NCBI GenBank assembly: GCA_035291645.1
Contig: DATDRQ010000310.1
Location: 1 to 58,289, forward strand
Origin: Anaerolineales bacterium
GTDB taxonomy: Bacteria > Chloroflexota > Anaerolineae > Anaerolineales > UBA4823
Direction of reading: 5' to 3'
Length of the DNA stretch: 58,289 bases
The notes under the pieces were generated by a model. The model saw only the letters and a list, made by a program, of their open reading frames with translations, had not been told where the DNA came from and searched no databases. A program made the position numbers and the translations under genes. Shown here piece after piece: positions 5,779 through 58,289 of this stretch; the first letter of the stretch is position 1; every line of letters begins with the position of its first letter.

Positions 5779-6806
5779 GTTTTTCCTTCGCTACCGCCGA
5801 TAAACTTACGAACCGTATAGGTGGGTTTCGATTGTGATTCATGGTAAGTTCTAACCAACAACTCTGCGATCAATCCAAGCAGGATAGATTGAAAGCCCAG
5901 AATGAACAGCATCGTGCTCATTTGCAGCAGCGGTGATCGCACCATGGATTCCCCCTCGACCACTTTTCGAAGGATGATCACCAGCAAGGAGGCGAAGCTT
6001 GCTAGGAACAAGACGATGCCTGCCCCTCCGAAGAGATAAATCGGTTTGTTGGCATAACTGGATAGGAATTTCACCGTGAAAAGGTCGAGAATGACTTTCA
6101 CCGTTCTTTCCAGCCCATATTTGGTTTTGCCAAACTGGCGGGCGTGGTGCTTGACCTGGACTTCGATGATCCTGGCGCCGACCCAACCGGCAAAGGCAGG
6201 GATAAAGCGGTGCATTTCACCGTAAAGGCGAAACCCCGTGATGACTTCGCGCCGGTAGGCTTTCAAGGTGCAACCATAGTCATGCAGGCGAACGCCGGTT
6301 ACCCGTGAAATGAGACCATTCGCTATCTGGGAGGGGAGTCTGCGCGACAGGAATGGGTCCTGGCGGTTATACCGCCAGCCGCTGACCACGTCGTAGCCCT
6401 GGTTCAATTTCTCCAGCATCATTGGGATGTCCGCCGGGTCGTTCTGCAAGTCGGCGTCCATTAAGACCAGGATCTCTCCGGCAGAATGGTCGATACCGGC
6501 CGCGATCGCCGCGGTCTGTCCAAAATTGCGGCGCAGCTCGACCACGCGTACGTGCTCCGGATCTACTTGCGCCAGGCTTTCCAGGGCGGGAAGACTCTTA
6601 TCGGAACTGCCATCGTCCACGTAGACCACTTCCCAGGGGCGATCCAGGTCGCTCATCGCTTCAGAAATGGCCGATTGGAGCAATGAGATACTCTCCGCCT
6701 CGTTATAAACCGGGATTACGATCGACACCAGGGAACGGTCATCCGGAAATGCAACCATCGCCTCACTGGGTTGAGTTTGAACCACTCGATCGAGATCCAC
6801 GCTCAC
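5775..6806 (-). CDS. GT2 polyprenol-phosphate sugar synthase (GtrB/ArnC/DPM1-like) with two C-terminal TM helices
   Basis: VSIVIPVYNEAESI, VDDGSSDKS and MDADLQNDP motifs; C-terminal hydrophobic pair. GTG start with AAAGGA upstream. Confidence 0.85.
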   Translation of the reverse strand: MSVDLDRVVQTQPSEAMVAFPDDRSLVSIVIPVYNEAESISLLQSAISEAMSDLDRPWEVVYVDDGSSDKSLPALESLAQVDPEHVRVVELRRNFGQTAAIAAGIDHSAGEILVLMDADLQNDPADIPMMLEKLNQGYDVVSGWRYNRQDPFLSRRLPSQIANGLISRVTGVRLHDYGCTLKAYRREVITGFRLYGEMHRFIPAFAGWVGARIIEVQVKHHARQFGKTKYGLERTVKVILDLFTVKFLSSYANKPIYLFGGAGIVLFLASFASLLVIILRKVVEGESMVRSPLLQMSTMLFILGFQSILLGLIAELLVRTYHESQSKPTYTVRKFIGGSEGKT

Positions 6807-10830: not shown

Positions 10831-10843
10831 AGGATTTCCTCGC

Positions 10844-12762
10844 TCAGCGCAACCGTTTGAATATGCGGAGGCTGGCATCCTCCCGGCAAGATAAGGTCGG
10901 CTGGGTCACTGCCACCTGCTGGAAACGATTTGGATCTGACAATTCTTCTTTCAACCAGCCCTCGTAGAAGCGTTCCTGGACGAGTGTGAAATCCGCCTCA
11001 TCAAGCCAGCGTTCCGCCAGCGGCTGGTTCCAAAATCCGTAGTTCAACAGTTCTTGTGGGTCGCCGTCCAGGCGGAAAGTATATCCGTCGAATATCTGGG
11101 GCGGGTAGACCTGCACACCTGGCAGGTAGAGCAGGGGTACCGCCGAGAGACCGCCCTGCCAGTAGACCGTAGACCCTGGCGGGACTTGCTCCGTTAGCGA
11201 CGTGCCGACCGCTTCATAGGAGGCGATCACATCCCCCCCGCAATCGTAGGTGCGGAAACCGGCGCCCAAAGCAACGGTTGGGGTGAGCGCCAACCCGGCG
11301 ATCAGAAAGCCAACCAGCGCCAGCGCGCCAAAACTCCTGGATGCCGGTGGGTGTCCTGATCGCTCGCCTCGCTTCCAGACGAACGCACTGGCCCCCAGGA
11401 TCAATAATCCGGCGGCAAGGCCGCCCAGGGCGGGCAGCAGGCGCCGGGCTTCTCCATACTTCAGATTGAAGTTGTTCTGCAGGTATTCCCATAGCGGCAC
11501 GGTACCGGGCAGCAGCTGCCCGGTCCGGATCAGCGTCCGCAGGCGAGGAATACGCCAGTCGAGCAACAGATCGCCCACGGGATCGAAGGCGCTGAAGCCG
11601 ATCCCGGCTGCCAGGAGCAGCACCAGGACGACGATGACCGCCTGTCTCCAGACAGATAGCTGCCAGCGCCAGGATGTCGCGCTGGCGGCGACCAACAGAA
11701 ACCCTAAAAAGGAAAAGAATGCCAGATAGACCGGGAAGCAGAATATGCAGTAGTTGCGCCCCAATGCATCGTAAGTCTGTGCGTTAACCCCTAAGGAAGC
11801 CCAGGCGTGGGCAAAGAACAGGACACCCAGCAGGCTGAGCAGCAGGACGCTGGCCTTGAATTTAAATTCGCTCTTCCACCGGCCCCTGGGAGGCCACAGG
11901 TATAGGGCGGTCAGCGCCCCGGCCAGGGCGACGAAGTGAAAACGGAAGCCGAGCAGGAAACTATAGATGCGGCTCTCCAACCCCACCTCTGGATTCCAGA
12001 TCGGGGTGGCGCGCGGCGGTCGCCAGGGGGCCAGGAAAGGCGCCAGGCGTTCCGGCAGCCAGGCCGCCCACTGGCGCAGGATGCCCGGCCAGAACAGTGC
12101 GTGACCGAGCAGGAAAACGCCCAGGCCCGCCAGAATTGCCAAACCACCTGCCCGCCTGCCATGCTGCCAGAAGATGTATGCGAGCAGGATGGGCAGCACC
12201 GGGAACAGGTTGAGGCGGGTGAGGACGACGGCCCCCGCCAGGGCAGCTCCCAGGCTGATCTGCCACAGCTTTAAGCCTTCGCCTACAGTCAGCGCCAGCA
12301 TCCATACCAGCATGCAGGCGACCAGCACCTGTGCGTTCATCAGGCTGTACATTTTCACCAGCGCCGGATTGATCGCCACCAGCAGGACCGCGGCCGCTGC
12401 CCACCACCGTCCTCCCAACCGGCGCGCCGTCAGCCACAGCCCAAGCAGCATCAGCAGGCCCAGGACGATCGCCAGGTAGCGACCGGTGCGGATTCCCGGC
12501 TCAGAGAGTACCTGAACAATGCCTGGAACCATAAAAGAAAGAGGCATGTGGTTCGTCCAGAAACCGAAATCCTGGAATGGGTGGTATTTTCCTTGAGCGA
12601 ACAGCTGGCCGATGAAGAGATAAGCGCCCTCGTCGACCAATGAAGCCTGCGTGTGGGCGTAGATCCAGGACTGGAGCAGGTAGATCAGGCCTCCGGCGAG
12701 AGCGGCGACATCCGCCAGGCCCGATCGGGCCCAGCGAGCTTCCCAGACCAGCGCGTTCTGCA

Positions 12763-30327: not shown

Positions 30328-30410
30328 GGCCGGGCGCGGTCTCAGGATCAAGCGTGCTTGCGCGCAAGCACGCTTGCGTGCAAGCACGGATTTGGAGACC
30401 TGCGTATCAT
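30324..30410 (+). repeat. intergenic structured repeat, copy A
   Basis: TTAGGGCCGGGCGCGGTCTCAGG..GTGCTTGCGCGCAAGCAC-GCTTGCGTGCAAGCACGGATTTGGAGACCTGCGTATCAT. It overlaps the kinase stop codon (TAG 30325-30327) and ends 12 nt before the next ATG. Confidence 0.8.
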
Positions 30411-30422
30411 AAAGGAATTGCG

Positions 30423-31277: not shown

Positions 31278-31360
31278 GTTTGGGCGCGGTTTCCGGGCCA
31301 CACAGGCTTGCGCGCAAGAACGCTTGCGAGCAAGCACGGATTCGAAGACCTTCGTAATAA
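31273..31360 (+). repeat. intergenic structured repeat, copy B
   Basis: ATTAAGTTTGGGCGCGGTTTCCGGGCC..GCTTGCGCGCAAGAACGCTTGCGAGCAAGCACGGATTCGAAGACCTTCGTAATAA. It contains the stop codon of the upstream gene (TAA 31275-31277). Confidence 0.85.
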
Positions 31361-31386
31361 AAAAAAGAACCGAGAATGGGAGAGCA

Positions 31387-46330: not shown

Positions 46331-46972
46331 TTAGACCAGAACCCAGACGTTGAGCGACTTGGGACCGTGCACCCCTAAGGTGACGGTCAGCTCGATGTCG
46401 GCGGTGCGACTCGGCCCGGTGATTAAGATCAAATAACCTTGCCCCTTCGCCTCCGCAAAGACCTGGGCCAGGTCCGGGCGGAACGCAGCCGCCCGCAGGA
46501 GCGCCAGATGGACGCGCGGCAGCAGGGAGACCGGGCGCGGCTTTTCGGGCGACGAGAGCAGGCCGATCGTGCCCGTCTCTGCCAGGGCAAAGTCCGCCTC
46601 AGTCACCCCCAGGTCACAGGAAGCCAGCCGGTGTTTATCTTCGCCCGCTGGAATGATCTCGACCCCCAACCGCTCCAGGTGGTCCGCCACACCCAAATCA
46701 CCCAGCACAGGCGTTTTCCACACAGTAGCCCTCCGGATTTCCTCTGCCTGGACCAGCTCATCCAGGGCTTGGGCCAGCTGTTCCTGGTGAACACGCCTGG
46801 CGTGCCCGGAAAGTTGGTTCAATTCAGACACAAACAGGTCAATCTCTGCCTGGATCTCGAGCGCTGGGCGGGGGGGCAGGACTGCAGGCCGCGGCTCCAC
46901 CGCTTGACCGGGCTGCCTTCCCAATGATTTGCGGATATTCTCGATGACCGGATTCTTGTCCAGAGGGCTCAT
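46331..46972 (-). CDS. lutC: lactate utilisation protein C (LUD domain)
   Basis: ATG 46972 forms an ATGA overlap with the lutB stop (46969-46971). The product MSPLDKNPVIENIRKSLG.. has LUD-domain length. The 386-aa track ORF is a spurious 5' extension inside lutB. Confidence 0.8.
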   Translation of the reverse strand: MSPLDKNPVIENIRKSLGRQPGQAVEPRPAVLPPRPALEIQAEIDLFVSELNQLSGHARRVHQEQLAQALDELVQAEEIRRATVWKTPVLGDLGVADHLERLGVEIIPAGEDKHRLASCDLGVTEADFALAETGTIGLLSSPEKPRPVSLLPRVHLALLRAAAFRPDLAQVFAEAKGQGYLILITGPSRTADIELTVTLGVHGPKSLNVWVLV

Positions 46973-48438
46973 GGCGATCCTCTTGAGTCCCGATCTCCGT
47001 TTCGACGCTGGCGCTGGGCCCACCACTCCCGGAAACCGCCTCGAAAGGCAGGCAAAGGCCTGACACGCGTCCAGCGGTTGACCGGTGGAGGCAGCGCGGG
47101 CAGCCAGCCGTCGCGCCGCAGGGGCGCCATTAGCAATGGCAGCAGGCGCGTGCCCAGGCGGTATAACCAGGGTGTGGAGAGCGCTACCCTGCCCAGGCTG
47201 GCGCTGGCTCTGAGCGGGGCCGGGGCGGCGGGTTTTTCGAACTCGTCCCCCTCGACCACGCGGTGTCTCAAGTGCAGCAGGATCTTGGGAATCGGGATTT
47301 TCACCGGGCAAACGTCCGCACACGCGCCGCACAGCGAGGAGGCGAACGGCAGCTCGCGCGCCGCCTCGACTCCCAGGATTTGCGGGGAAAAGATCGCTCC
47401 GATCGGCCCGGAGATGAACCAGCCGTAAGCGTAGCCGCCGACATGCTTGTAAACCGGGCAGACGTTCAGGCAGCAACCGCAGCGGATGCACTTGAGCGTC
47501 TCGCGGGCGACGGGATCTTGCAGGATGCGGCTGCGCCCGTTGTCCAGCAAGACCAGGTGGAATTGCTTTGCTCCCCCCTCTCCAACGGTACGGCGCGGTC
47601 CTGTGATGAAGGATGTATAGGCAGAAAGCTTCTGACCGGTAGCGCTGCGCGCCAGCAGCTTGAGCAAGACCGTCAGGCTTTCCCAGTCAGGCACGACTTT
47701 ATCGATGCCTACCACGGCGACGTGCAGGTCAGGCAAGGTCGTACACATGCGCCCGTTGCCCTCATTGGATACGATCACCAGCGCGCCGGTCTCGGCTACC
47801 AGGAAATTGGCCCCCGAGATGCCCATCTCTGCTTCCAGGAAGCGCTCGCGCAGTATCCTCCGGGCGATCGCCGCCAATTCTAGTGGGTCCGTAGGCGCGT
47901 CGATGCCGAGCTTCTCCCGGAAAAGTGCAGCGATCTCCTCTTTACGCATGTGGACCGCCGGGACGATGATGTGGGAAGGGCCGGTCCCTGCCAGCTGGAT
48001 GATGAATTCACCCAGGTCGGTCTCATAAGCCTGGATACCGGCTGCTTCTAACGCCTGGTTGAGCCCGATCTCCTCCGTCGCCATCGACTTGACCTTTACC
48101 GCCGTCCGGGCTCCATGCTGCCGGGCAATATCCACCACGATCGCGCTGGCTTCGGCGGCGTCCACGGCCCAATGCACCACGCCGCCGGCTGCGACGACCT
48201 GTTTCTCGACCAGTTCCAGGTACAAGTCCAGATTGAGCAGGGTGTGCAGACGGATCTCGTGCGCCGCCTGGCGTAGCTCTTCCCACTGCGGCATTTCAGC
48301 AATGCGCGCTTCCCGGTTCCCCAGGAAGCGACCGGTCGCCTGCTCAAGCGCGATGGGGATGTTCTTAGGGACGTGGGTCGAGTACTCCCCAAACTCGATG
48401 TAGGCCGGAGCCTGGTGGGAGTGGGTAGATTCGGTCAT
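46969..48438 (-). CDS. lutB: lactate utilisation protein B (4Fe-4S, LUD domain)
   Basis: CIRCGCCLNVCP and CGACADVCP ferredoxin motifs. ATGA overlap with lutA. Confidence 0.88.
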   Translation of the reverse strand: MTESTHSHQAPAYIEFGEYSTHVPKNIPIALEQATGRFLGNREARIAEMPQWEELRQAAHEIRLHTLLNLDLYLELVEKQVVAAGGVVHWAVDAAEASAIVVDIARQHGARTAVKVKSMATEEIGLNQALEAAGIQAYETDLGEFIIQLAGTGPSHIIVPAVHMRKEEIAALFREKLGIDAPTDPLELAAIARRILRERFLEAEMGISGANFLVAETGALVIVSNEGNGRMCTTLPDLHVAVVGIDKVVPDWESLTVLLKLLARSATGQKLSAYTSFITGPRRTVGEGGAKQFHLVLLDNGRSRILQDPVARETLKCIRCGCCLNVCPVYKHVGGYAYGWFISGPIGAIFSPQILGVEAARELPFASSLCGACADVCPVKIPIPKILLHLRHRVVEGDEFEKPAAPAPLRASASLGRVALSTPWLYRLGTRLLPLLMAPLRRDGWLPALPPPVNRWTRVRPLPAFRGGFREWWAQRQRRNGDRDSRGSP

Positions 48439-49169
48439 CGATACCCCCCATTCGAGGCCAGGATATCAATCAGATGGAGCGCCTTGACCTGCGATCCAGC
48501 TTTGCGCAAGCCCCCGCCGATGTTCATCAGGCAACCGGCGTCACAGGCGACCACCGCCTCCGCCCCGGTGGCAAGAATGTTGTTGACCTTGGCTTCCATC
48601 ATCGCCCGGCTGACCTCGGGGTATACCACGCTGAACACACCCCCAAACCCACAGCAGGTCTCCTCTTCCGGGAGAGGGACGATCTCGAGATCGCGCACTT
48701 CGCTCAAGAGCAGCCCGGCTTCCCGGCGCAACCCCAGCCCGCGCAGCAGGTGGCAGGAGGGATGGTAGGTCACCCGGCCGGGGAAACGCGCCCCGACGTC
48801 GGTGACGCGCAGCTGATTGACCAGGAAATCTGTGAACTCGAAGGTCCGCCCGGCCAGGTCTCTGGCGAGTTCATGCTCGCGGGTCCCCTCGGGGAACAGC
48901 TCCGGGTAATGGTGGTGGACCATGTCGACACACGAGCCGGAGGGAGAGACGATCACGGCTTCACTGCGGCCGAAGACCTCCAACCAATTACGCGCCATGG
49001 CGCGCGCCTGGGATTGGAATCCACTGTTATAAAGCGGCTGCCCGCAGCAGGTCTGTTCTGCCGGAAATTCAACCTGCACGTCCAGGCGCTCCAACAGCAA
49101 GACCATCTGTTGCAAGATGTTCGGATAGAACTGTTCGGCCAGGCAGGTAATAAACAACTGTGCTTTCAC
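48435..49169 (-). CDS. lutA: lactate utilisation protein A ((Fe-S)-binding CCG-domain oxidoreductase)
   Basis: Two CCG-type cysteine motifs (..QTCCGQP.., ..ETCCGFGG..). GTG start with GGAGA upstream. Confidence 0.85.
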   Translation of the reverse strand: MKAQLFITCLAEQFYPNILQQMVLLLERLDVQVEFPAEQTCCGQPLYNSGFQSQARAMARNWLEVFGRSEAVIVSPSGSCVDMVHHHYPELFPEGTREHELARDLAGRTFEFTDFLVNQLRVTDVGARFPGRVTYHPSCHLLRGLGLRREAGLLLSEVRDLEIVPLPEEETCCGFGGVFSVVYPEVSRAMMEAKVNNILATGAEAVVACDAGCLMNIGGGLRKAGSQVKALHLIDILASNGGYR

Positions 49170-49222
49170 GGATAGACCAATCTCCAGGCTGGTATTTTAG
49201 CCCACTTCAGTGATTAATTGAG

Positions 49223-49238
49223 AGTGATCATTGTCATT
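49223..49238. promoter_or_regulatory. CRP/FNR-like operator (AGTGA-TCATTG-TCATT) in the divergent lutA-icd region
   Basis: Shares the 13-mer GTGATCATTGTCA with 51693-51708. There are 23 nt to a minus-strand TAAAAT (49199-49194) and 18 nt to the plus-strand TATAAT. Confidence 0.5.
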
Positions 49239-49253
49239 TCGCTGGCGCCCCCA

Positions 49254-49262
49254 TGCTATAAT
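49254..49262 (+). promoter_or_regulatory. extended -10 promoter element of icd (TGcTATAAT)
   Basis: Perfect TGnTATAAT 39 nt upstream of ATG 49301; GAGGAG SD. Confidence 0.5.
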
Positions 49263-49300
49263 TTTCTCGAGACTTTAATACGACGAGGAGACAGGTCAAG

Positions 49301-50602
49301 ATGGGAAATATGATCGCAGCACCGGAGGGTGGAGAGAAGATTATTATCCGGGACGGGCAGCTGCAAGTGCCGGATTTCCCCGTCATCCCTTTTGTCGAGG
49401 GCGATGGGACCGGGCGGGACATCTGGCGGGCCTCCCGGCGTGTCCTGGAGGCCGCCGTGGAGAAAGCCTACCGGGGCAAGCGCAGGATCGCCTGGATGGA
49501 GGTTTACGCCGGCGAGAAGGCTTTCAACTCATCCGGCAGCTGGCTACCCGAGGAAACAGTCGGGGCCTTCCAGGAATATCTGGTCGGGATCAAAGGTCCC
49601 CTGACCACTCCGATCGGGGGCGGGATCCGCTCCCTTAATGTCGCCCTGCGGAAGTTACTTGACCTGTACGTCTGCCAACGGCCGGTCCGCTACTTCCAGG
49701 GAGTTCCATCCCCGGTGAAACATCCGGAATATGTGGACATGGTGGTTTTTCGAGAGAACACCGAGGACATCTACACCGGCATAGAATTCGAACACGGCAC
49801 TCTTGAGAATACCCATTTCAAAGCCTTGCTGCGGGATAATTTTCCCAGCGAATATCAAAAGATCCGTTTCCCGGAGACTTCCGGTATCGGTCTGAAACCC
49901 GTGTCGAAAGAAGGCACTTCCCGTCTGGTGCGGGCGGCGATTCGCTTTGCCCTGGCGAATAAACGCCGCAACGTCACCCTGGTTCACAAAGGGAATATTA
50001 TGAAGTACACAGAGGGCTCCTTCCGCAACTGGGGTTACGAGATCGCCGAGACCGAGTTTGGCGACCAGGTCTATACCTGGAGCCAGTGGGAACGCACCGT
50101 GCAGGCAAAAGGCGAAGCAGCCGCCAACGCCGAGCAAGACGAGGCGTTGAAAGCCGGCAGGCTGCTCATCAAGGACGCCATCGCCGATATCGTCTTCCAG
50201 CAGACTATCACGCGCGCTCGCGAGTTCGACGTCCTGGCGACCATGAACCTGAACGGGGATTACCTGTCGGATGCGCTGGCGGCGCAGGTGGGCGGGATCG
50301 GCATCGCCCCCGGTGGAAACATCAATTACTCCACCGGTCATGCCGTCTTCGAGGCCACCCACGGCACTGCCCCCAAGTATGCCGACAAGGATATGGTCAA
50401 CCCCGGTTCGGTGATCCTCTCCGGTGAGATGATGTTCAATTACATGGGCTGGCCTGAGGCGGCTGGGCTCGTCATTAAAGGCATGGAAGGAGCGATCACA
50501 GCCAAGACGGTGACCTACGACTTCCACCGGCTGATGGACGGGGCGAAACTGCTCAAAACCTCTGAGTTCGGAGACGCCATAATCCAGCATATGGACGATT
50601 GA
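49301..50602 (+). CDS. icd: isocitrate dehydrogenase (NADP), homodimeric prokaryotic type
   Basis: ..[20 protein letters not shown].., ..[21 protein letters not shown].., ..[23 protein letters not shown]... Confidence 0.93.
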
Positions 50603-50624
50603 GCTCATCCTGGATAAATCACAT

Positions 50625-50653
50625 CCGCCCCATAAGTTCGGGGCGGTTTTTTT
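50625..50653 (+). terminator. rho-independent terminator of icd
   Basis: CCGCCCC-ATAAGTTC-GGGGCGG followed by T7. Confidence 0.8.
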
Positions 50654-50790
50654 CGTTTTCTCGAGAACCGCGATCTATTCAGGAAGGCCTGAGAACAAAC
50701 CGTAGTAAAATACTCGAGAACCCCCGAATTACAGGGGCAATTGCAGGTAGTTTTCAGATCTAAACCAATCAAATCCTGTCGGAGGCTAGG

Positions 50791-51201
50791 ATGGACTCTG
50801 TCAAACTAAACCTTACCGGTCTGGCGCGTTACCGGGGGCGCGAAGGGCAGTTTAGCTTCCTGCTTCACCGCCTGACCGGCCTGGGGACCCTGTTATTCCT
50901 GGTTATTCACATCCTGGATACCTCCACGGTTTACTTCTTCCCTTCCCTGTACTCGCATGCCATCGAGATCTACCGCAGCACCCCCATGATGATCGGAGAG
51001 ATCTTCCTGGTTTTTAGCGTCATTTACCACGGCGTGAACGGGGCGCGCATCGCAATTTTCGACCTTTTCTTCCCGAACCTGTGGAACATCGAGACCCAAC
51101 GCAGCACAGCAGTCTGGACCCTGGCAATCGCCATCCTGCTCTGGCTCCCAGCAGCCTTCTTGATGGGCCGCAGCTTGCTCGTTCATAATTTTGGGCTGTA
51201 G
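50791..51201 (+). CDS. sdhC: succinate dehydrogenase cytochrome b subunit, copy 1
   Basis: ..YRGREGQFSFLLHRLTGLGTLLFLVIHI.. and three TM helices. GGAGG SD. Confidence 0.75.
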   Translation: MDSVKLNLTGLARYRGREGQFSFLLHRLTGLGTLLFLVIHILDTSTVYFFPSLYSHAIEIYRSTPMMIGEIFLVFSVIYHGVNGARIAIFDLFFPNLWNIETQRSTAVWTLAIAILLWLPAAFLMGRSLLVHNFGL

Positions 51202-51213
51202 GGGAAAAAAGCG

Positions 51214-51606
51214 ATGTCTGCGACTACGGAGCAAATCTCGAGACAATCGGTTGAGATGCAGGGCAGTTTTGAGAATACCGCCTGGAGGTGGATGCGCTAC
51301 AGTGGTTTGCTGCTCATCCCGCTGGCCTGGATCCACGTTGCCATACAAGACGTACTGGTAGGTGTGCACAGCATAGACCTGGATTACGTCGCCTTTCGCT
51401 GGGCTTCCCTCGGCTGGCGGGTTTATGATTTCGCCCTGTTGGCCTTCGCCTTCGCCCACGGTGTGAACGGCCTGCGCCAGGTGCTCTTCGACTACATCGG
51501 AAATGATAAGGCCCGCCGCCGGCTTTCCTGGTTATTGCTGGCCTTCTGGCTGATCGTCTCGCTGATCGGGGCTGGCGCGATCGTAGGCGGGGTTCGAATG
51601 GAATAG
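51214..51606 (+). CDS. sdhD: succinate dehydrogenase hydrophobic anchor subunit, copy 1
   Basis: 130 aa with three TM helices. W..MRYSGLLLIPLAWIHV and ..AHGVNGLRQV.. Located directly after sdhC. Confidence 0.6.
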   Translation: MSATTEQISRQSVEMQGSFENTAWRWMRYSGLLLIPLAWIHVAIQDVLVGVHSIDLDYVAFRWASLGWRVYDFALLAFAFAHGVNGLRQVLFDYIGNDKARRRLSWLLLAFWLIVSLIGAGAIVGGVRME

Positions 51607-51692
51607 AATTGACTCTGGCACCGGACCACGTGTAAATATTGGAGACCACTGCATCAAAAAGAGCTCCTAACAGGATATCTGAAACCAATTAA

Positions 51693-51708
51693 TGTGATCA
51701 TTGTCACT
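51693..51708. promoter_or_regulatory. CRP/FNR-like operator (TGTGA-TCATTG-TCACT) upstream of the second sdhCD pair
   Basis: 9/10 match to TGTGA-N6-TCACA. It is followed after 23 nt by AATAAT inside TGcAATAAT (51729-51737). Confidence 0.55.
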
Positions 51709-51801
51709 TTTCTTCGGATGGTGAAAACTGCAATAATGAAATAGATAAGGTAAACAGGGAGTCCTGTTGGCGTCCTTCCGCTGCGCTATTAAGGAGTGTA
51801 T

Positions 51802-52191
51802 ATGAGCCAAAACCGGCAAGTCAGCGCCCTGACCGGGTTCAAATACCGGGGTGGAAACCCGATGTGGGCCTGGATGCTCCACCGCATCACCGGTCTGGGT
51901 ATGGTCGTGTTCATCAGCCTGCATATCCTCGCCTCTTTCTTCATGCAACAAACCGGTAGCCAGCTGGCAACCTTCATCAACACCCTGTACGAATCCTGGG
52001 TCCTGCAGATATTTGTCGTCTTTTTCGTCGTCTACCACGCCCTGAACGGCCTGCGCATCGCCATCCTGGACCTGTGGCCTCAGTTTATGGTCTATCAGAG
52101 GCAGGCTTTGTGGTTGCAGTTGTTCATCTTTGCACCGGTCTATGGCCTGACGGTGCTCATCTTAATCCAAAACGCCCTGGCGGGCAGTTGA
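51802..52191 (+). CDS. sdhC: succinate dehydrogenase cytochrome b subunit, copy 2
   Basis: ..YRGGNPMWAWMLHRITGLGMVVFISLHI.. is collinear with copy 1. AAGGAG lies 5 nt upstream of ATG 51802 (the track GTG is at 51796). Confidence 0.7.
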   Translation: MSQNRQVSALTGFKYRGGNPMWAWMLHRITGLGMVVFISLHILASFFMQQTGSQLATFINTLYESWVLQIFVVFFVVYHALNGLRIAILDLWPQFMVYQRQALWLQLFIFAPVYGLTVLILIQNALAGS

Positions 52192-52209
52192 GATGCGGAG
52201 GTTTAGCAG

Positions 52210-52638
52210 ATGAGCTCCAGAACAGTTCAGTCCGGATTTAATTTCGAATACTTCATGTGGATGTTCACCCGCCTCTCCGGCGTTGGGTTGGTGGCGATGG
52301 CGATGATCGGCTTGTTAGGAGCGCTTGTCCTGGGAGCCAGTACTCAGGTCAACCTGCCGACGCTGATGCGCTGGACGTTCTTCCCGAACCCGAACCACGT
52401 CCAAAGCAGCGTCCCGGATGTTGCACTCGGCTGGGCCAACGGTTTTTGGCAGATCATGCAGATCCTGATCGTTTTCTTTGGAGCCACTCATGGTTTCAAC
52501 GGACTGCGGGCAGTCGTCGAGGATTTCGAGGGGAAGTCCGAATGGAAGCCGTTATTGCGAGGATTGATCTTCCTGCTGTGGATCTTCGTGCTGATGATGG
52601 CGCTTTACATTATCCTGGCCCCTGAGGCGCAAGTCTAA
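52210..52638 (+). CDS. sdhD: succinate dehydrogenase hydrophobic anchor subunit, copy 2
   Basis: 142 aa with three TM helices. ..FTRLSGVGLV.. and ..THGFNGLRAV.. parallel copy 1. GGAGG SD. Confidence 0.55.
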   Translation: MSSRTVQSGFNFEYFMWMFTRLSGVGLVAMAMIGLLGALVLGASTQVNLPTLMRWTFFPNPNHVQSSVPDVALGWANGFWQIMQILIVFFGATHGFNGLRAVVEDFEGKSEWKPLLRGLIFLLWIFVLMMALYIILAPEAQV

Positions 52639-52665
52639 ACAGACATTAATAATCCGTATATTATA

Positions 52666-52697
52666 ATTGTGGGGCAGGCTTGAACCTGCCCCACAAT
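52666..52697 (+). other. 13-bp perfect hairpin between sdhD2 and sdhA
   Basis: ATTGTGGGGCAGG-CTTGAA-CCTGCCCCACAAT followed by GTTATT. A TATAAT (52662-52667) overlaps its 5' edge. Confidence 0.55.
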
Positions 52698-52759
52698 GTT
52701 ATTAAACAGCATTGCCCCTGGTTCAGAAGAGCCTGCGAAGGAGGTCGAAGGATCGCTGC

Positions 52760-54550
52760 ATGAATGTCCATCAGCATGATGTCATCGTGGTTGGGGCCGG
52801 GGGGGCTGGCTTAATGGCTGCACTTTATGCTTCGAAGAGCGCCAACATTGCCGTGCTCAGCAAGCTGTATCCCATGCGCTCACACACCGGCGCCGCCCAG
52901 GGCGGCGTCGGAGCCGCGCTCGGCAACCTCGAAGAGGATCACCCGGAGTGGCACACCTATGACAGCGTCAAAGGCAGCGACTACCTCGGCGATCAGGATG
53001 CGATCGAGTTCATGTGTTTCGAAGCCGTCCAGGCTGTCTACGAACTGGAGCACATGGGCTTACCCTTCTCGCGCACTCCGGATGGGCGCATCGCCCAGCG
53101 ACCCTTCGGAGGACACACCAACAACATCACCGGAAAACCGGTCCGGCGGGCCTGCTACGCGGCTGACCGCACCGGGCACATGATCCTGCAAACACTCTAC
53201 CAGCAGTGTATCAAGAACCGAGTGAGTTTCTTCGACGAATTTCAGGTGCTTGACCTGCTGCTCGTCAACGGGCAGACAGCCGGGGTGGTCGCGATCCAGC
53301 TTTCTACCGGTGAGCTGCATGTTTTTCAATCCAAGGCGGTCATTTTCGCTACCGGCGGTCACGGGCGCATCTGGGAGATCACCTCCAATGCCTATGCTTA
53401 TTCCGGGGATGGGATCGCCATCACGTTACGCCGGGGGATCCCGGCTGAAGATATGGAGTTCTTCCAGTTCCACCCTACCGGCATATTCAAGCTCGGCATC
53501 CTGATCACCGAGGGCGTGCGCGGCGAAGGCGGGGTCCTGGTCAATGACCAGGGTGATCGCTTCATGGAGAAATACGCCCCCAACGTTAAAGACCTGGCCT
53601 CACGCGACGTGATCAGCCGCGCCATGCACCTCGAGATGCAGGCCGGCCGCGGCATCAACGGCAAGCGCTACCTGTACCTGGATGTCCGCCCTGAGACGGT
53701 GAATAAGTATGCCGCCCTGGATGGGCGTAAGCACCCGGACGGTTCACCCTACGTCGTCACCGCCAAGGAGATCCTTTCGAAACTGCCGGACATCGTCGAC
53801 TTCTGCCGGACATACCTGGGCGTCGATCCCGTCTCCCAACCCATGCCGGTCCAGCCGACCGCCCATTATGCCATGGGTGGGATCCCGACCAATAAGTTCG
53901 GGGAGGTCGTGATCGATGAGCACAACACGGTACTCCCAGGCCTGTACGCCGCTGGCGAGGTCGCCTGTGTCTCGGTGCACGGGGCCAACCGCCTCGGCAC
54001 GAACTCGCTGCTCGACCTGCTGGTATTCGGCAAGCATTCCGGACTGCAGGCTGCCGGGTACGTAGCGGGCGCTTCCCTGCAGAAGCTGCCCTCGGATGCC
54101 ACCGATTTCTCCCGCTCCCAGCTGGATGCTTTACTCACTTCAAAGGGAAAAGAACGCCCGAACGAGATCGCCGAAGAAATGAAGAAGACGATGAACGATC
54201 ACGTGGGTGTATTTCGGACAGAGGAGGGCATGCAGACCGCCCTCGAATGCCTGCGTGACCTCAAAGAACGCTTCAAACAAGTGCGTGTGGACGACCATGG
54301 CAAGATCTTCAACACCGACCTGCTAAATGCCTGGGAGCTGGGCAACCTGATCGACCTGGCAGAGGTAACCACCGCAGCGGCGCTGGCCCGCAAGGAAAGC
54401 CGGGGTGCGCACGCCCGTGAGGATTATCCGAAGAGGGACGACGCCAACTGGACCAAGCACAGCCTGGTCTGGGCCAGGGGTGATGGGCTGGAACTGCGCT
54501 ATAAACCCGTCGTTATCACCCATTATCAGCCTAAAGAACGAGTTTACTAG
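52760..54550 (+). CDS. sdhA: succinate dehydrogenase flavoprotein subunit
   Basis: [17 protein letters not shown], ..[10 protein letters not shown].., ..FHPTG.., ..RGEGG... ATG 52760 with AAGGAGG upstream. Confidence 0.93.
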
Positions 54551-54565
54551 ACAGGTTGATTGTAT

Positions 54566-55270
54566 ATGCAAGTAACCTTACGCATCCTTCGCTTCAATCC
54601 TGAAAAGGATGAGAAACCACATTTTGAGAAATATGAGGTCGAAGCAGATCCAACCGATCGCGTCCTTGACCTGTTGGAGCATGTCAAGGGACGGATCGAT
54701 GGGACGCTTTCATTTCGCCGCTCCTGCGCCCATGGGGTGTGCGGTTCCGATGCGATGCGCGTCAACGGACGCAACTACCTGGCCTGCAAGGTCCTGGTTA
54801 AAGACTTAAACTCTTCGAAGATAACCGTCGAACCGATGCTGGGTCTGCGGGTGCTTAAGGACCTGATCGTGGATATGGAGCCGTTCTTCGAGCACTACCG
54901 CTCGGTGTTGCCGTACTTCATTAACGATGAACCCCCGCCCAACCAGGAACGGCTGCAAAGCCCGGAAGAGCGCGAGCGCTTCGACGACACTACCAAATGT
55001 ATCCTGTGCGCCGCCTGCACCACCTCCTGCCCATCCTTTTGGGCGAATGAACGCTACGTCGGGCCGGCCGCCATCGTCACCGCCCACCGCTTTATCTTCG
55101 ACAGCCGGGATACCGCCGCCGCCGAGCGGTTGAATATCCTCAACGACCAGTTCGGAGTTTATCGCTGCCATACCATCTTCAACTGTACCGAGGCCTGCCC
55201 GCGCGATATCCAGGTGACCAAGGCGATCGGTGAGGTGAAGAAAGCCATCGCCACCGGCCGGCTGGATTAG
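54566..55270 (+). CDS. sdhB: succinate dehydrogenase iron-sulfur subunit
   Basis: 2Fe-2S CAHGVCGSDAM..C, 4Fe-4S CILCAACTTSCP and 3Fe-4S CHTIFNCTEACP. ATG 54566 (the track TTG is at 54560). Confidence 0.93.
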   Translation: MQVTLRILRFNPEKDEKPHFEKYEVEADPTDRVLDLLEHVKGRIDGTLSFRRSCAHGVCGSDAMRVNGRNYLACKVLVKDLNSSKITVEPMLGLRVLKDLIVDMEPFFEHYRSVLPYFINDEPPPNQERLQSPEERERFDDTTKCILCAACTTSCPSFWANERYVGPAAIVTAHRFIFDSRDTAAAERLNILNDQFGVYRCHTIFNCTEACPRDIQVTKAIGEVKKAIATGRLD

Positions 55271-55289
55271 GATACACGAGTTCCCCGTG

Positions 55290-55298
55290 TGCTATAAT
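55290..55298 (+). promoter_or_regulatory. extended -10 element (TGcTATAAT) upstream of tRNA-Arg
   Basis: It ends 10 nt before the first tRNA base. Confidence 0.45.
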
Positions 55299-55308
55299 TT
55301 GGCCGTCC

Positions 55309-55380
55309 GCCCCAATAGCTCAATGGATAGAGCGAGGCTCTCCTAAGGCCGAGATCCGGGTTCGAGTCCCGGTTGGGGCT
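55309..55380 (+). tRNA. tRNA-Arg (anticodon CCT), CCA not encoded
   Basis: Acceptor GCCCCAA/TTGGGGC, D arm GCTCAATGGATAGAGC, anticodon loop CTCCTAA, T arm CCGGGTTCGAGTCCCGG. Similar to E. coli argW in the anticodon arm. Confidence 0.85.
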
Positions 55381-55455
55381 ATCAAGAAAGGAAAAGTTTC
55401 ACAATTTCTCACCAGAAAAAATCGAATCCCTCTTGATTTTTTCTAAAATTTTTGG

Positions 55456-55510
55456 TATTATTCCGCCGTCAAGCGTCTGGGTGCCCCCCTCACCCAGGCG
55501 TTTGACTATT
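55456..55510 (+). repeat. direct repeat unit 1 containing an 11-bp hairpin
   Basis: TATTATTCCGCCGTCAAGCGTCTGGGTG-CCCCCCT-CACCCAGGCGTTTGACTATT. Confidence 0.75.
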
Positions 55511-55608
55511 AACCAGTCGTTTCACAAACTCGATGTATCTTGTATTATTTTAAGTTAGTTTTTAACAACAGATTCGTAAGAATGCTTGCGTTCGAATCAA
55601 GAATGTGC

Positions 55609-55662
55609 TATTATTCGCCTGGCAAGCGTCTGGGTGCCCCCCTCACCCAGGCGTTTGCTATT
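55609..55662 (+). repeat. direct repeat unit 2 containing the same hairpin
   Basis: TATTATTCGCCTGGCAAGCGTCTGGGTG-CCCCCCT-CACCCAGGCGTTTGCTATT(TTTATT). The 35-nt core is identical to unit 1. Confidence 0.75.
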
Positions 55663-55770
55663 TTTATTAGGTTAGTTCTAGTTCCCTCATCTCGGCGAAG
55701 ATTTCTATTTCACGAATTTTCCGGTAAACTTTAAGGTAGCCCCAAACGCGATTTTTCATAGGAGAATCCG

Positions 55771-57039
55771 ATGCCCCTCGACCTGACCCAGATCCGCGCC
55801 CAGTTCCCGGCTCTCAGCCGGGAGGCTATCTTCCTCGATAATCCCGGTGGGACACAAACCGCCCGCCAGTCGATCGACCGCATTGTGGAGTACTTGACCC
55901 ACCACAACGCCAACCACGATGGCGCCTTCGCGACCAGCATTGAATCGGATGCCATCCTCGACGAAGCCCACCAGGCTGTGGCTGATTTCCTCAACACCTC
56001 CCAGCCGCAGGAGATCGTCTTCGGCGCCAACATGACCACCCTGACCCTGCATATCAGCCGCTCCTTGTCTTGCACCTGGAATCCCGGCGACGAGATCGTG
56101 GTCACCCGCCTCGATCACGACGCCAACGTGACCCCCTGGGTTCTGGCGGCTGAAGATCGCGGCTGCCAGGTGCGCCGGGTGGATTTTCACCCGGAAGATG
56201 GCACGCTCGACCTGTCGGATCTTAAGAAGGCGCTGGAGGGAAGGCCGCGCTTGCTGGCAGTCGGCTACGCTTCCAACGCCCTGGGCACGATTAACCCGGT
56301 GGAAGAGATCGTCGAGATGGCGCACGCTACAGGTACCCAAGTTTACATCGACGCAGTCCATTATGCCCCGCACGGGCCAATCGACGTGCAGCGCCTGGAC
56401 TGCGATTTCCTGGTGTGCTCGGCCTATAAGTTCTTCGGCCCTCACGTTGGCATTCTGTATGGCAAGTATGAACTGCTGGACAAACTGCCCGCTTACAAGG
56501 TACGCCCGGCCCCCAACAACCTGCCCGGCAAGTTCGAGACCGGTACACAGAACCACGAGGGCATCGCCGGGGTGCTCGGGGCGATCGAGTACCTGGAATG
56601 GCTGGGCGAGACTTTCGGTGGAGACTACCAGGAGGCATACACCGGCCGGTATGAGGGCCGGCGCTTGCGCCTCAAGCAGGCTATGGCTGCCATCCGGGCC
56701 TACGAGTTTGAGCTCTCGCGCGCCTTGCTGGACGTGCTGGAGGAGACGCCCGGGTTGACCCTATACGGAATCCGTGACCCGCGTCTCCTGGAGCAGCGCG
56801 CCCCAACTTACGCCTTCCGGTTGAAGGGTCTGCACCCGCTGGAAGTCGCCCGGCAGCTCGGCGGCCAGGAGATCTTCGTCTGGGACGGCAATTACTACGC
56901 CCTCTCGGTGACCGAGCGACTGGGGGTGGAGCAGAGCGGCGGCATGGTGCGCGTCGGGCCGGTGCACTACAATACGGTAGAGGAGATCAATAAATTTGGG
57001 GAGATGTTGGGAAAGCTGGCTACCGCAAGTTCAGAATAG
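55771..57039 (+). CDS. class V PLP-dependent aminotransferase (cysteine desulfurase-like protein)
   Basis: 422 aa. ..FLDNPGGTQ.., ..HDANV.. and the PLP-lysine context CSAYKFFGPHVG. AGGAGA SD. Confidence 0.85.
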   Translation: MPLDLTQIRAQFPALSREAIFLDNPGGTQTARQSIDRIVEYLTHHNANHDGAFATSIESDAILDEAHQAVADFLNTSQPQEIVFGANMTTLTLHISRSLSCTWNPGDEIVVTRLDHDANVTPWVLAAEDRGCQVRRVDFHPEDGTLDLSDLKKALEGRPRLLAVGYASNALGTINPVEEIVEMAHATGTQVYIDAVHYAPHGPIDVQRLDCDFLVCSAYKFFGPHVGILYGKYELLDKLPAYKVRPAPNNLPGKFETGTQNHEGIAGVLGAIEYLEWLGETFGGDYQEAYTGRYEGRRLRLKQAMAAIRAYEFELSRALLDVLEETPGLTLYGIRDPRLLEQRAPTYAFRLKGLHPLEVARQLGGQEIFVWDGNYYALSVTERLGVEQSGGMVRVGPVHYNTVEEINKFGEMLGKLATASSE

Positions 57040-57043
57040 AGGT

Positions 57044-57484
57044 TTATTCTCCCACCCAAAACACCCAGGACACACCCAACTGGTGAGCGCGGTTCACAAG
57101 GTGTAGGTCGGTCGTCCAAAACGGAACATCGAGTTTCTCTGCTAATGCAAGGTAAAAACCATCATAGGCTTGGTGTTGGGTTAATCGAGTCGACCAGGCG
57201 AATGCTTGTCGGCAAGCTTCCGTATCCGCATCATACAATTCGATGCTTAAACCTAACAGAGCTTCGAGAGCCTCCATTGCTCTTTCTTCAGTAAGAAGCT
57301 TCTTCATGTAAATTTTATGCAGAACAGAGGTTGTTTCGTTCAGCCACAAGCGTGGTGCACATACACTGACTCCCTCTTCTATCCAGCCAGACCAACGCAC
57401 ATCCACCTTCTCAGATAGTGGATCAGCAATCACCTGGAAGACGCCTACCCCGGCGTCAATCACCACGGCTGAGGATCTGATCAT
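57044..57484 (-). CDS. vapC: PIN-domain toxin, VapC family
   Basis: Acidic PIN residues in VVIDAGV, NETTSVL, AYDGFYLALA and TTDLHL; 146 aa. Confidence 0.85.
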   Translation of the reverse strand: MIRSSAVVIDAGVGVFQVIADPLSEKVDVRWSGWIEEGVSVCAPRLWLNETTSVLHKIYMKKLLTEERAMEALEALLGLSIELYDADTEACRQAFAWSTRLTQHQAYDGFYLALAEKLDVPFWTTDLHLVNRAHQLGVSWVFWVGE

Positions 57485-57764
57485 CCCGTTCCTCTCGTAA
57501 TTCAGAGATCAAATCAGGGAAACTCACATCGAGTGGAACGCCTCCATGTTCTCTCATGATAGCCAAACGTACCTGGCGGGTTTTCTCGAGAACCTGTAAG
57601 CGTCGCTGTTTCTCCACGGCAAATAGCCGCTGGCGCTGTTCAATCCCTTCTTGAACGAATTCCCGGGTGAGCTCGGAAATGCTTCGACCTTCGAGCTTGG
57701 CGAGTTGAGCCAGGTTCTTGTGCTGATCGGGATCAAGCAACAGGTGTGTTCTATACTTGCTCAT
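57456..57764 (-). CDS. vapB: ribbon-helix-helix antitoxin (VapB-like)
   Basis: N-terminal RHH pattern THLLLDPDQHKNLAQLAKLEGRSISELTREFV. Lies upstream of vapC and overlaps it by 29 nt. Confidence 0.7.
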   Translation of the reverse strand: MSKYRTHLLLDPDQHKNLAQLAKLEGRSISELTREFVQEGIEQRQRLFAVEKQRRLQVLEKTRQVRLAIMREHGGVPLDVSFPDLISELREERDDQILSRGD

Positions 57765-57784
57765 AAGCAGAACTCCTCAAATCA

Positions 57785-57813
57785 ATTATCACATGCACAT
57801 GTGAGTGTGTCAA
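57785..57813 (-). promoter_or_regulatory. vapBC promoter with an embedded palindromic operator
   Basis: On the minus strand: TTGACA-17-GATAAT. The spacer contains TCACATG-TG-CATGTGA (plus-strand 57789-57804). GAGGAG SD follows. Confidence 0.6.
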
Positions 57814-57881
57814 GTGCGATTTCCTATTATACTGGCCTTGTGCCAGGTGACTCGTGAAGAACGGGGGGATAAACTCCGGAG

Positions 57882-58046
57882 ACGGCCTGGGGAGATGTAA
57901 GTGTGGCAAGGAAACTATTATGCCTTAACCGTCACCGAACGGCGGCATGGTGCGCGTCGGCCCGGTGCGTTACAACACGGAGGAGGAGATCCACAGGTTC
58001 GGGGAGGCGTTGGGGAAAATCGCACACCTTAAGCTGGCTGAATGAT
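57882..58046 (+). pseudogene. 3'-terminal fragment of a second copy of the class V aminotransferase gene (frameshifted)
   Basis: Aligns by eye to 56866-57039. It encodes WQGNYYALTVTER, then a 20-nt deletion, then GGMVRVGPVRYNTEEEIHRFGEALGKIAHLKLAE*, against the intact WDGNYYALSVTERLGVEQSGGMVRVGPVHYNTVEEINKFGEMLGKLATASSE*. A TAA lies just upstream and there is no 5' part. Confidence 0.75.
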
Positions 58047-58097
58047 TCTCATGCCAGCCAAGCTCTCATGCGACAAATTCTTGATGTACCGCCAAAG

Positions 58098-58125
58098 TTG
58101 TTTGCTGATCGTCGGATGATATAAT
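58098..58125 (+). promoter_or_regulatory. candidate promoter (TTGTTT-16-TATAAT) of the last gene
   Basis: Hexamers at 58098-58103 and 58120-58125, 60 nt upstream of ATG 58185. Confidence 0.35.
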
Positions 58126-58184
58126 GATCTATATAAGCAGAGCTACAGGCCCGGCTCCAGCGTCTCGTCGATTGACGCGTCCGC

Positions 58185-58289
58185 ATGGATAATTTATTCC
58201 ACACGATCCAAACGATTCAAGAGCGTTTGCTTGAGGCAAATATTCCCTCTATTGTCATTGGCGGCATGGCAGTTGCCGCTTGGGGTGAG
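58185..58289 (+). CDS. partial CDS (first 35 codons), possibly a nucleotidyltransferase-fold protein
   Basis: MDNLFHTIQTIQERLLEANIPSIVIGGMAVAAWGE. The ..IGG.A...G.. start is typical of small Pol-beta-fold NTases often found in TA/defence contexts. Not in the ORF track (open at the window edge). Confidence 0.3.
   Translation, partial: MDNLFHTIQTIQERLLEANIPSIVIGGMAVAAWGE

Follow-up and report, generated by a model that had tools for sequence, protein, structure and literature searches.

The stretch of DNA analyzed here (the window, 58,289 nucleotides (nt) and the entire contig DATDRQ010000310.1) comes from a member of the Anaerolineae (Chloroflexota). Near its right end it carries an intact class V aminotransferase-fold gene, a vapBC toxin–antitoxin pair, and a second, degraded copy of the 3′ end of the aminotransferase gene. 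We propose that this arrangement arose by a reciprocal, ends-in insertion of DNA holding gene-end homology and vapBC into the resident gene, and we put the probability of this full model at roughly 0.55. Short segments and small counts underlie its main inferences, and our confidence in it is therefore moderate.

The intact gene (55771–57039, forward strand) encodes a product of 422 amino acids (aa) that matches the cysteine desulfurase-like NCBIfam family TIGR01976 over its full length (470.4 bits against a cutoff of 352.35, residues 4–413) as well as Pfam Aminotran_5 (4.5e-69). A second copy of its last ~178 nt lies in direct orientation at 57883–58045. In local alignment, the best ungapped block pairs 56934–57014 with 57937–58017 at 66 of 81 positions (81%), with a score of 87 where 300 shuffles gave 17.7 ± 2.1 and a maximum of 26, and an independent repeat search of the contig recovers the same pair. 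With lighter gap penalties, homology extends from ~56862 to the stop codon in the gene and from ~57883 to 58045 in the fragment, and the repeat copies in this locus are ~65–81% identical. The longest run identical between them, 20–21 nt (56937/8–56957 and 57940/1–57960), covers the codons for GGMVRVG. Because a 20-nt gap falls between ~57939 and 57940, the fragment is frameshifted. One of its frames reads VWQGNYYALTVTER at 57901–57942, after an in-frame TAA at 57898–57900, and the other frame reads GMVRVGPVRYNTEEEIHRFGEALGKIAHLKLAE and ends at its own TGA (58043–58045). The first ~1090 nt of the gene have no counterpart at the fragment locus. The initial annotation had described, by eye, a gene-end duplication of roughly 80% nucleotide identity with a recognizable C-terminus, its own stop, a frameshifting 20-nt deletion, and the rest of the gene missing; formal alignment bears out each of these points with minor adjustments of coordinates. 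Two Rfam matches, SNORD94 and Plastid-ycf2, were far below thresholds and were discarded.

Between the two gene-end copies there are only vapB and vapC. The vapC gene (57044–57484, reverse strand) encodes a probable PIN-domain toxin of 146 aa and converges with the aminotransferase gene, the two stop codons lying 4 nt apart. Its product scores just below the Pfam cutoffs (PIN_2, 22.2 bits against 22.4; PIN, 20.3 bits against 23.6) and has no NCBIfam match, but many of its 61 homologs carry precomputed PF01850 annotations, and NCBI gives two of them the name VapC family toxin. Residues D9, E49, D107, and D125 are conserved in the alignment with locus L089 (L-numbers denote fetched loci or contigs carrying homologs of window genes). 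The vapB gene (57456–57764, reverse strand) lies directly upstream of vapC and overlaps it by 29 nt. It encodes a 102-aa ribbon-helix-helix antitoxin, with weak RHH_5/RHH_1 and RelB-like matches and with orthologs in L089 (63% aa identity) and L181 (77%). The pair is kept as a unit in L089, L181, L182, and L188. Upstream of vapB, a promoter-like site on the reverse strand (57813–57785; TTGACA-17-GATAAT, TG-extended) matches 11 of 12 positions, is kept in L089 and L181, and encloses a perfect 16-nt palindrome, TCACATGCACATGTGA, at 57789–57804, a putative VapB operator. At 0.491, the cassette has a lower guanine–cytosine (GC) content than any other 800-nt window along the contig (mean 0.579, standard deviation 0.030), and GC at third codon positions is 0.49–0.52 in the cassette genes against 0.79 in the aminotransferase gene. 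The description of an interval holding only vapBC, with what may be its own promoter and operator and with lower GC than the flanks, thus holds.

The gene–vapBC–fragment arrangement is not an assembly artifact, because it recurs on five other metagenome contigs from different samples (at least 99.3% identity), which makes six independent assemblies, and because one soil-metagenome unitig covers 56937–58178 exactly and at even depth. Many partial unitig matches were considered as evidence of excision and set aside, as they stem from homologs in other organisms.

Relative to the uninterrupted locus of a close relative, the cassette is an insertion. Relatives in GTDB reach only 72% aa identity in the aminotransferase; two metagenomic relatives come closer, and the metagenome scan gave no relative closer than 74% among the matches listed. 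One of the two (L082/L087/L088; aminotransferase 85% aa identity) is, as seen in L087, collinear with window positions 46341 to 57003, over 10.6 kb upstream, at 79–80% nt identity, and shares nothing with the window downstream of 57003. The other, L090 (84% aa identity), has a 140-nt spacer after the gene and then a converging rubrerythrin gene, which shares 87.5% identity with its counterpart on the far side of the fragment in the window species. This site in L090 is empty, with neither vapBC nor a gene fragment. Compared with it, the window species has gained ~1.55 kb between the gene stop and the rubrerythrin stop, consisting of vapBC, the fragment, and the region of an 80-aa open reading frame (ORF).

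The empty site also bears on another explanation, in which the fragment arose through tandem duplication in situ, or is a decayed second paralog, and had nothing to do with the arrival of vapBC. Unequal exchange can yield direct repeats that flank a segment, and a fragment with a frameshift and a stop codon looks like a decaying pseudogene. However, L090 lacks the fragment as well as vapBC, and our survey of this gene (~165 non-redundant loci from GTDB and metagenome scans, among the matches listed) found no full-length second copy within 6–7 kb at any of the 165 loci; the five remnants that exist comprise only the last 105–250 nt of the gene. The full-length second paralog at the fragment position that the initial annotation had weighed as a competing account was thus found neither in the survey nor in L090. 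Together with the codon pattern of the divergence described below, these results make such an origin highly improbable.

Comparison across loci shows vapBC to be a mobile unit that moves horizontally. Alignments with L182, L188, and L181 delimit a module at 57028–57823 (reverse strand). Its identity is 83.5% over 787 nt to L182, where it lies in a GDPD context, 74% to L188 in a phosphoglucomutase context, and 79% to L181. The closest VapC (85%) is that of L182/L183, located between a short-chain dehydrogenase cluster and the GDPD gene, and the VapC gene of L188 (71%) converges on the phosphoglucomutase gene. Homologs of this VapC are scarce: two GTDB scans, the second with a VapC alignment, returned L089 only. 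Even in non-aminotransferase contexts, homology to the module reaches 57028–57031 and so covers the last ~10 nt of the aminotransferase gene and its TAG stop; by this comparison, these last codons of the intact gene lie within vapBC-module sequence. At the other end, homology to L181, L182, and L089 stops at 57814–57823, followed by a junction stretch (57824–57882) before gene homology begins at ~57883. The junction of the window is found again in L181 (VapC 80%), where the stop likewise falls within the module and the two stops are 4 nt apart, despite an aminotransferase only 71% identical to that of the window. Compared with L181, the window shows a synonymous divergence (dS) of 1.60 in the aminotransferase gene, of 1.02 in vapC, and of 0.33 in vapB, and the last value is below the 0.87 that separates the window aminotransferase gene from its closest relative. 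The two closest relatives of the window species have no vapBC. Given the shared junction, the low dS of the module, and the lack of vapBC in these relatives, the simplest reading is that the module and the gene-end junction were imported together from a lineage like that of L181 or L089. Within the module, vapB is much closer to L181 than vapC is, which suggests recombination inside the toxin–antitoxin operon or separate histories for toxin and antitoxin. In the other contexts (L182/L183 and L188), no fragments of neighboring genes bracket vapBC; the initial annotation had suggested a survey of other vapBC loci for such duplications. L182 has a perfect 18-nt palindrome at 2656–2673, just past the 3′ flank of vapC in its non-aminotransferase context.

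The fragment itself is a mosaic, with a switch at or near the identical 20-nt block (the core; 56938–56957 in the gene and 57941–57960 in the fragment, both on the forward strand). Left of the core, the segment of the intact gene that is duplicated (56862–56937, forward strand) is native, matching L090 at 38 of 42 positions and L082 at 36 of 42. Over the same 42 positions, the fragment matches L090 at 27, L082 at 30, L089 at 33, L181 at 32, and the intact copy itself at 28. Sites informative with respect to L090 favor the intact copy in 16 of 16 cases and the fragment in 0 of 16. Differences on the fragment’s own branch in this part fall at first, second, and third codon positions in the ratio 3/0/11, with 9 synonymous and 2 non-synonymous, and the divergence between the copies overall is 7/5/22 (chi-square p = 0.0005). 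Because the differences are third-position and synonymous-biased, the 5′ part of the fragment (57883–57940, forward strand, with the in-frame TAA and ending at the 20-nt deletion) diverged in a working gene of another lineage and not through local decay, which argues against duplication in situ. These ~60 nt are thus foreign, drawn from a formerly functional gene copy.

Right of the core, the relationship tends the other way. The 3′ part of the fragment (57961–58045, forward strand, with its own TGA) is 85.7% identical to L090 over 84 nt and is contiguous with the native downstream region toward rubrerythrin that is shared with L090, and it is probably the displaced native 3′ end. Matches to L090 number 48 of 60 for the fragment and 44 of 60 for the intact copy, and informative sites over 56958–57021 favor the fragment at 11 and the intact copy at 5, a difference not significant alone. 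By these counts, the fragment’s last ~85 nt are as close to L090 as the end of the intact copy is, and nominally closer. Across the family, 47 of 73 loci are slightly closer to the fragment over the last 81 nt, and sliding identity against L082 drops in the variable tail only. The left–right heterogeneity of informative sites is significant with L090 (Fisher p = 0.0002) and with L082 (p = 0.011), and in a maximum chi-square scan, the switch falls at 56910–56958 (permutation p = 0.002 with L090). Taken together, these tests show a mosaic remnant with its breakpoint in that interval. We read the intact gene as native on the left and incoming on the right, and the remnant as the reverse, because a single reciprocal crossover predicts exactly that pattern, provided that the incoming DNA held vapBC and had homology to the gene end left and right of the crossover. 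As the 5′ part of the fragment looks foreign and the 3′ part native-like, the crossover would lie ~100 nt inside the gene, and at most its last ~80–100 nt would be surrogate. For 56958–57027, a foreign origin is weakly indicated, because divergence right of the core is near saturation.

The mosaic is also what speaks against an illegitimate joint. In homology-facilitated illegitimate recombination (“C-terminal displacement”), a linear donor would be anchored in the gene, its other end would be joined illegitimately, and the resident 3′ end would be pushed downstream. This process has been proposed for the displaced 3′ ends and orphan modules of Rhs, contact-dependent inhibition (CDI), and type VI secretion system (T6SS) effector loci (PMC5361080; Jackson et al. 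2009, PMC2935791). No recombinase is required, and the variable fragment boundaries described below would fit illegitimate joints, as would the ordinary chromosomal operon carried as cargo at L044, which is found elsewhere in seven other loci. However, it predicts a fragment that is wholly resident, and the 5′ 60 nt are not (27/42 against 38/42 to L090, and 0/16 sites). We therefore consider it improbable at the window locus. Illegitimate recombination may have acted at some of the four other loci described below, where outgroups are too distant to tell.

Under the ends-in model that we prefer, vapBC would have entered the lineage by horizontal transfer on DNA that also held a foreign version of this gene’s 3′ end, in a donor arrangement where vapC already abutted the stop codon of the cysteine desulfurase-like gene. 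A single reciprocal crossover of the Campbell type would then have taken place between the incoming DNA and the resident gene, in or next to the identical block at 56938–56957 (interval 56910–56958). The resident gene would have received the incoming surrogate end (~56958–57039, forward strand; indicated by informative sites and module homology), its last codons and stop belonging to the vapBC module. After this surrogate end would come vapC and vapB with their own promoter and operator, then the hybrid remnant, in which the core links incoming sequence (57883–57940) to the displaced native end (57961–58045), and then the resumed native downstream region. A stop codon and the 20-nt deletion would later have disabled the remnant, and the addictive toxin–antitoxin pair, together with low repeat identity, would have kept the structure stable. 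The counts on either side of the core support an ends-in topology at this locus, from which we infer a circular or ends-in intermediate. The idea of a surrogate end with the original displaced to the far side, put forward in the initial annotation, consequently stands in part: the insertion, the foreign vapBC, and the cassette-linked extreme end of the gene agree with it, but the fragment’s 5′ ~60 nt are foreign and are not the displaced original. Its other suggestion, capture by homologous recombination from a relative, comes closer to the evidence than an integrase does.

Several observations weigh against this model. With L082 as reference, the permutation p for the breakpoint is only 0.05. 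The foreign signal at 56958–57027 is weak, with 45 of 60 matches to L181 and 44 of 60 to L090, and identity between the window and L181 shows no visible rise until vapC itself. The compared segments are short (42–82 nt). Homologous recombination would be inefficient between partners that are ~70–80% identical and have only a 20-nt exact block, and the first formation of DNA that joined gene-end homology to cargo lacks an explanation. In the assembled unitigs of four runs, where depth was even, we saw no circular form, no deletion joint from excision, and no cassette-free subpopulation.

The same layout recurs at this gene. Among the ~165 loci, four further lineages have the order gene, cargo, and 3′ fragment of the gene in direct orientation, each with different cargo. 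In L138, the cargo is a DUF433/DUF5615 (PIN-like) pair between repeats that are 89% identical; in L052, an alpha/beta hydrolase gene (87%); and in L044 (the same as L175), a 5.5-kb operon of MarR, two ABC transporters, and HlyD (92%), the youngest of these loci. L089 has DUF2442/DUF4160, then the fragment, and then a helix-turn-helix gene and the orthologous vapBC, and it looks like a two-step array. Since four further lineages are affected, and since no 3′-fragment duplication of any other gene was found in the 1.55 Mb of fetched loci (only paralogs and internal or intergenic repeats), the 3′ end of this gene is a genuine hotspot. The five fragments begin at ~ −52, −58, −60, −88, and −93 codons, and with five left ends for five events, the boundary is not fixed. 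Left ends that seemed to coincide (the window with L052, and L044 with L089) were rejected on nucleotide inspection, being 2–8 codons apart. The crossover is mappable in the window only, as the outgroups of L138, L052, and L044 are too distant (74–77% nt identity) and their patterns mixed.

Some further features of these loci deserve mention. In L089, the displaced gene fragment is without its last ~50 codons, and an HTH_3 (HigA-like) gene with no adjacent toxin partner lies between it and vapC (3630–3923). In L044, the intact aminotransferase gene appears frameshifted near its 3′ end (7058–7260; 5113–5316 in L175), which may be a sequencing error, as the assembly is nanopore-based. Immediately upstream of the aminotransferase gene copy in L053, a small ORF and an FHA-domain gene are flanked by a 126-nt intergenic direct repeat (4404–4529 and 5818–5943, 93% identical) that is no gene fragment.

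A recurrent target invites the idea of a site-specific integrative element, in which a tyrosine or serine integrase inserted an island by means of a gene-end-like attP and the island then decayed to a remnant of the cis-mobilizable type, with vapBC and its att repeats. Toxin–antitoxin pairs resist deletion. The locus does have direct repeats like attL and attR, an exact 20-nt core, and a target gene that stays intact at 422 aa, no other gene in the 1.55 Mb of neighboring sequence is targeted, and the layout resembles that of e14 at icd with its icdC remnant (PMC13626634; Hill et al. 1989, PMC210168). However, the cassette contains no recombinase gene, none lies in the 10 kb downstream, and the four analogous loci and their flanks have none either, the youngest, L044 with its 92% repeats and 5.5-kb cargo, among them. 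When the 142 first and second downstream ORFs at 76 loci are sorted by family, the 25 commonest include no integrase family, so that any such family has at most 2 members there. The five left ends all differ, and pairwise comparison of all flanks at the five loci, on both strands, revealed no common junction motif above chance; the same comparison found no attC- or pdif-like shared boundary site above chance, with no formal attC or pdif model run. Moreover, the ~60 nt of homology left of the crossover are coding sequence shaped by purifying selection, which an attP arm would not need. An element of this kind, reduced to a remnant, is therefore unlikely, even though a lost or trans-acting site-specific recombinase may have been at work, in which case the locus would be an analog of e14 at icd or of cis-mobilizable elements (PMC7563491). 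The initial annotation was right that no recombinase is present, but an integrase beyond the right edge of the window failed to appear in the 10 kb examined, and the integrating element with a lost recombinase that it proposed fits poorly with five recombinase-free loci whose boundaries differ and share no motif. We instead favor host homologous recombination acting on a short conserved block, because fragment boundaries vary, an ordinary chromosomal operon serves as cargo, recombinases are lacking, and coding-like homology lies on both sides of the crossover. The crossover block is nearly identical across genera.

Downstream sequence is available from L083, which reaches 10 kb further right than the window. 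Its order is the fragment, the 80-aa ORF, rubrerythrin on the reverse strand, an AlkZ-like glycosylase, a Fic/MazE-type pair, a ROK regulator, and sugar-related genes, with no recombinase and no third gene-end copy in these 10 kb. The 80-aa ORF starts at 58185 and runs to the window edge (58185–58289, forward strand); it is complete in L081 (5831–6073), its product (MDNLFHTIQTIQERLLEANIPSIVIGGMAVAAWGEPRVTRDVDL...) has no Pfam or NCBIfam match, and it is absent from the 140-nt spacer of L090. It may be the truncated remnant of a second insertion. The variable region beside the gene is rich in toxin–antitoxin pairs: a Fic/Doc and MazE-type antitoxin pair lies a few kb from vapBC in L083 (13101–13735), and a PIN and MazE-type antitoxin pair a few kb from the vapBC module in L188 (3746–4424).

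Other repeats occur elsewhere in the contig. Between sdhB and the aminotransferase gene, a tRNA-Arg(CCT) gene (55309–55380) is followed by an AT-rich spacer of 390 nt, in which a 52-nt repeat occurs twice (55453–55504 and 55606–55657, 90% identical). Both copies contain an identical 28-nt hairpin, GCGTCTGGGTGCCCCCCTCACCCAGGCG, found nowhere else in the contig, and they could correspond to tandem terminators or to a small repeat element. An 82-nt direct repeat with nested palindromes (GCTTGCGCGCAAGCACGCTTGCG...) is located at 30332–30413 and 31282–31363, 950 nt apart and 80% identical. At 9267–12379, three collinear repeat blocks with a spacing of 1951–1957 nt and 73–77% identity appear to indicate two tandem paralogous genes.

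The influx of genes into bacterial chromosomes is usually ascribed to recombinase-bearing elements or to double crossovers in flanking core genes. The locus described here would be a third kind of footprint, from a phylum that has been little studied: cargo that comes linked to a copy of the target gene end, a gene that survives with a replaced end, and a hybrid remnant that can be dated. Five lineages have the footprint at this one gene, in three cases around a toxin–antitoxin pair, and it thereby offers a testable case of toxin–antitoxin modules spreading as minimal mobile units and of variable regions nucleating beside conserved genes. It also matters for annotation, as remnants get called as small ORFs and the C-terminus of the intact gene would be chimeric. 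More speculatively, and with only a small chance of being right in our judgment, short stretches from the conserved 3′ end of a housekeeping gene might serve as portable “address labels” that direct small cargo, especially toxin–antitoxin pairs, to that one gene across Anaerolineae genera without an element-encoded recombinase. Each arrival would renew the gene end and push older cargo and its remnant outward, an integron-like accretion driven by host recombination or by an unlinked recombinase acting on the GGMVRVG block.

Gene-end-duplicating insertion is already known. What would be new is its recombinase-less form, with a toxin–antitoxin pair as the sole cargo, and its recurrence at one housekeeping gene of Anaerolineae. 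Prophage e14 and phage 21 at icd in E. coli K-12 likewise involve an element at the 3′ end of a metabolic gene (PMC13626634; PMC210168). At e14, as here, sequence supplied by the element forms the end of the intact gene, and a pseudogene of the C-terminal part, icdC in the case of e14, lies on the far side in direct orientation (Hill et al. 1989, PMC210168). However, e14 spans 15 kb, codes for its own integrase, and is excised upon SOS induction, while the cargo here is 0.8 kb, with no recombinase, repeats of ~65–81% identity, and a fragment that is a foreign/native mosaic. Cis-mobilizable elements (CIMEs) are att-flanked remnants derived from integrative and conjugative elements (ICEs) or integrative and mobilizable elements without integration genes, for example at the 3′ end of fda in streptococci (PMC7563491, PMC6323972). 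They share with our locus the flanking repeats from a gene 3′ end and the lack of a recombination module inside, but CIMEs share their site with cognate ICEs that carry an integrase, and no such occupant was seen in the ~165 loci.

Systems without a dedicated recombinase at the locus offer further parallels. Rhs, CDI, and T6SS effector loci undergo C-terminal displacement and accumulate orphan modules with no dedicated recombinase (PMC5361080, PMC3150448, PMC2935791). As in the present case, the gene body acts as a homologous anchor, a new 3′ end and its cargo are inserted proximally, and old 3′ fragments are pushed downstream, where they can accumulate in arrays; L089 would be a two-step array of this kind. 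The target here, in contrast, is a housekeeping gene for a pyridoxal phosphate enzyme, the cargo is unrelated to the function of the gene, and what takes the place of the old 3′ end is a homologous end, not a new domain. The dif modules of Acinetobacter plasmids and integron cassettes are also units of ~1 kb that lack a recombinase, often carry toxin–antitoxin pairs, and are moved by a recombinase encoded elsewhere (PMC6449649, PMC13141974). Like the insertions at our gene, they are small and accumulate at defined sites, but they are bounded by pdif or attC, whereas the only shared boundary here is homology to the target gene end. Lastly, during transformation of S. pneumoniae, merodiploids form by host recombination when near-identical donor repeats pair in an alternative register (PMC3784515). 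There too, a duplication flanks the inserted material and only host recombination is involved (PMC3784515). Those merodiploids, however, were obtained experimentally in a competent firmicute with near-identical repeats, while the partners here are diverged.

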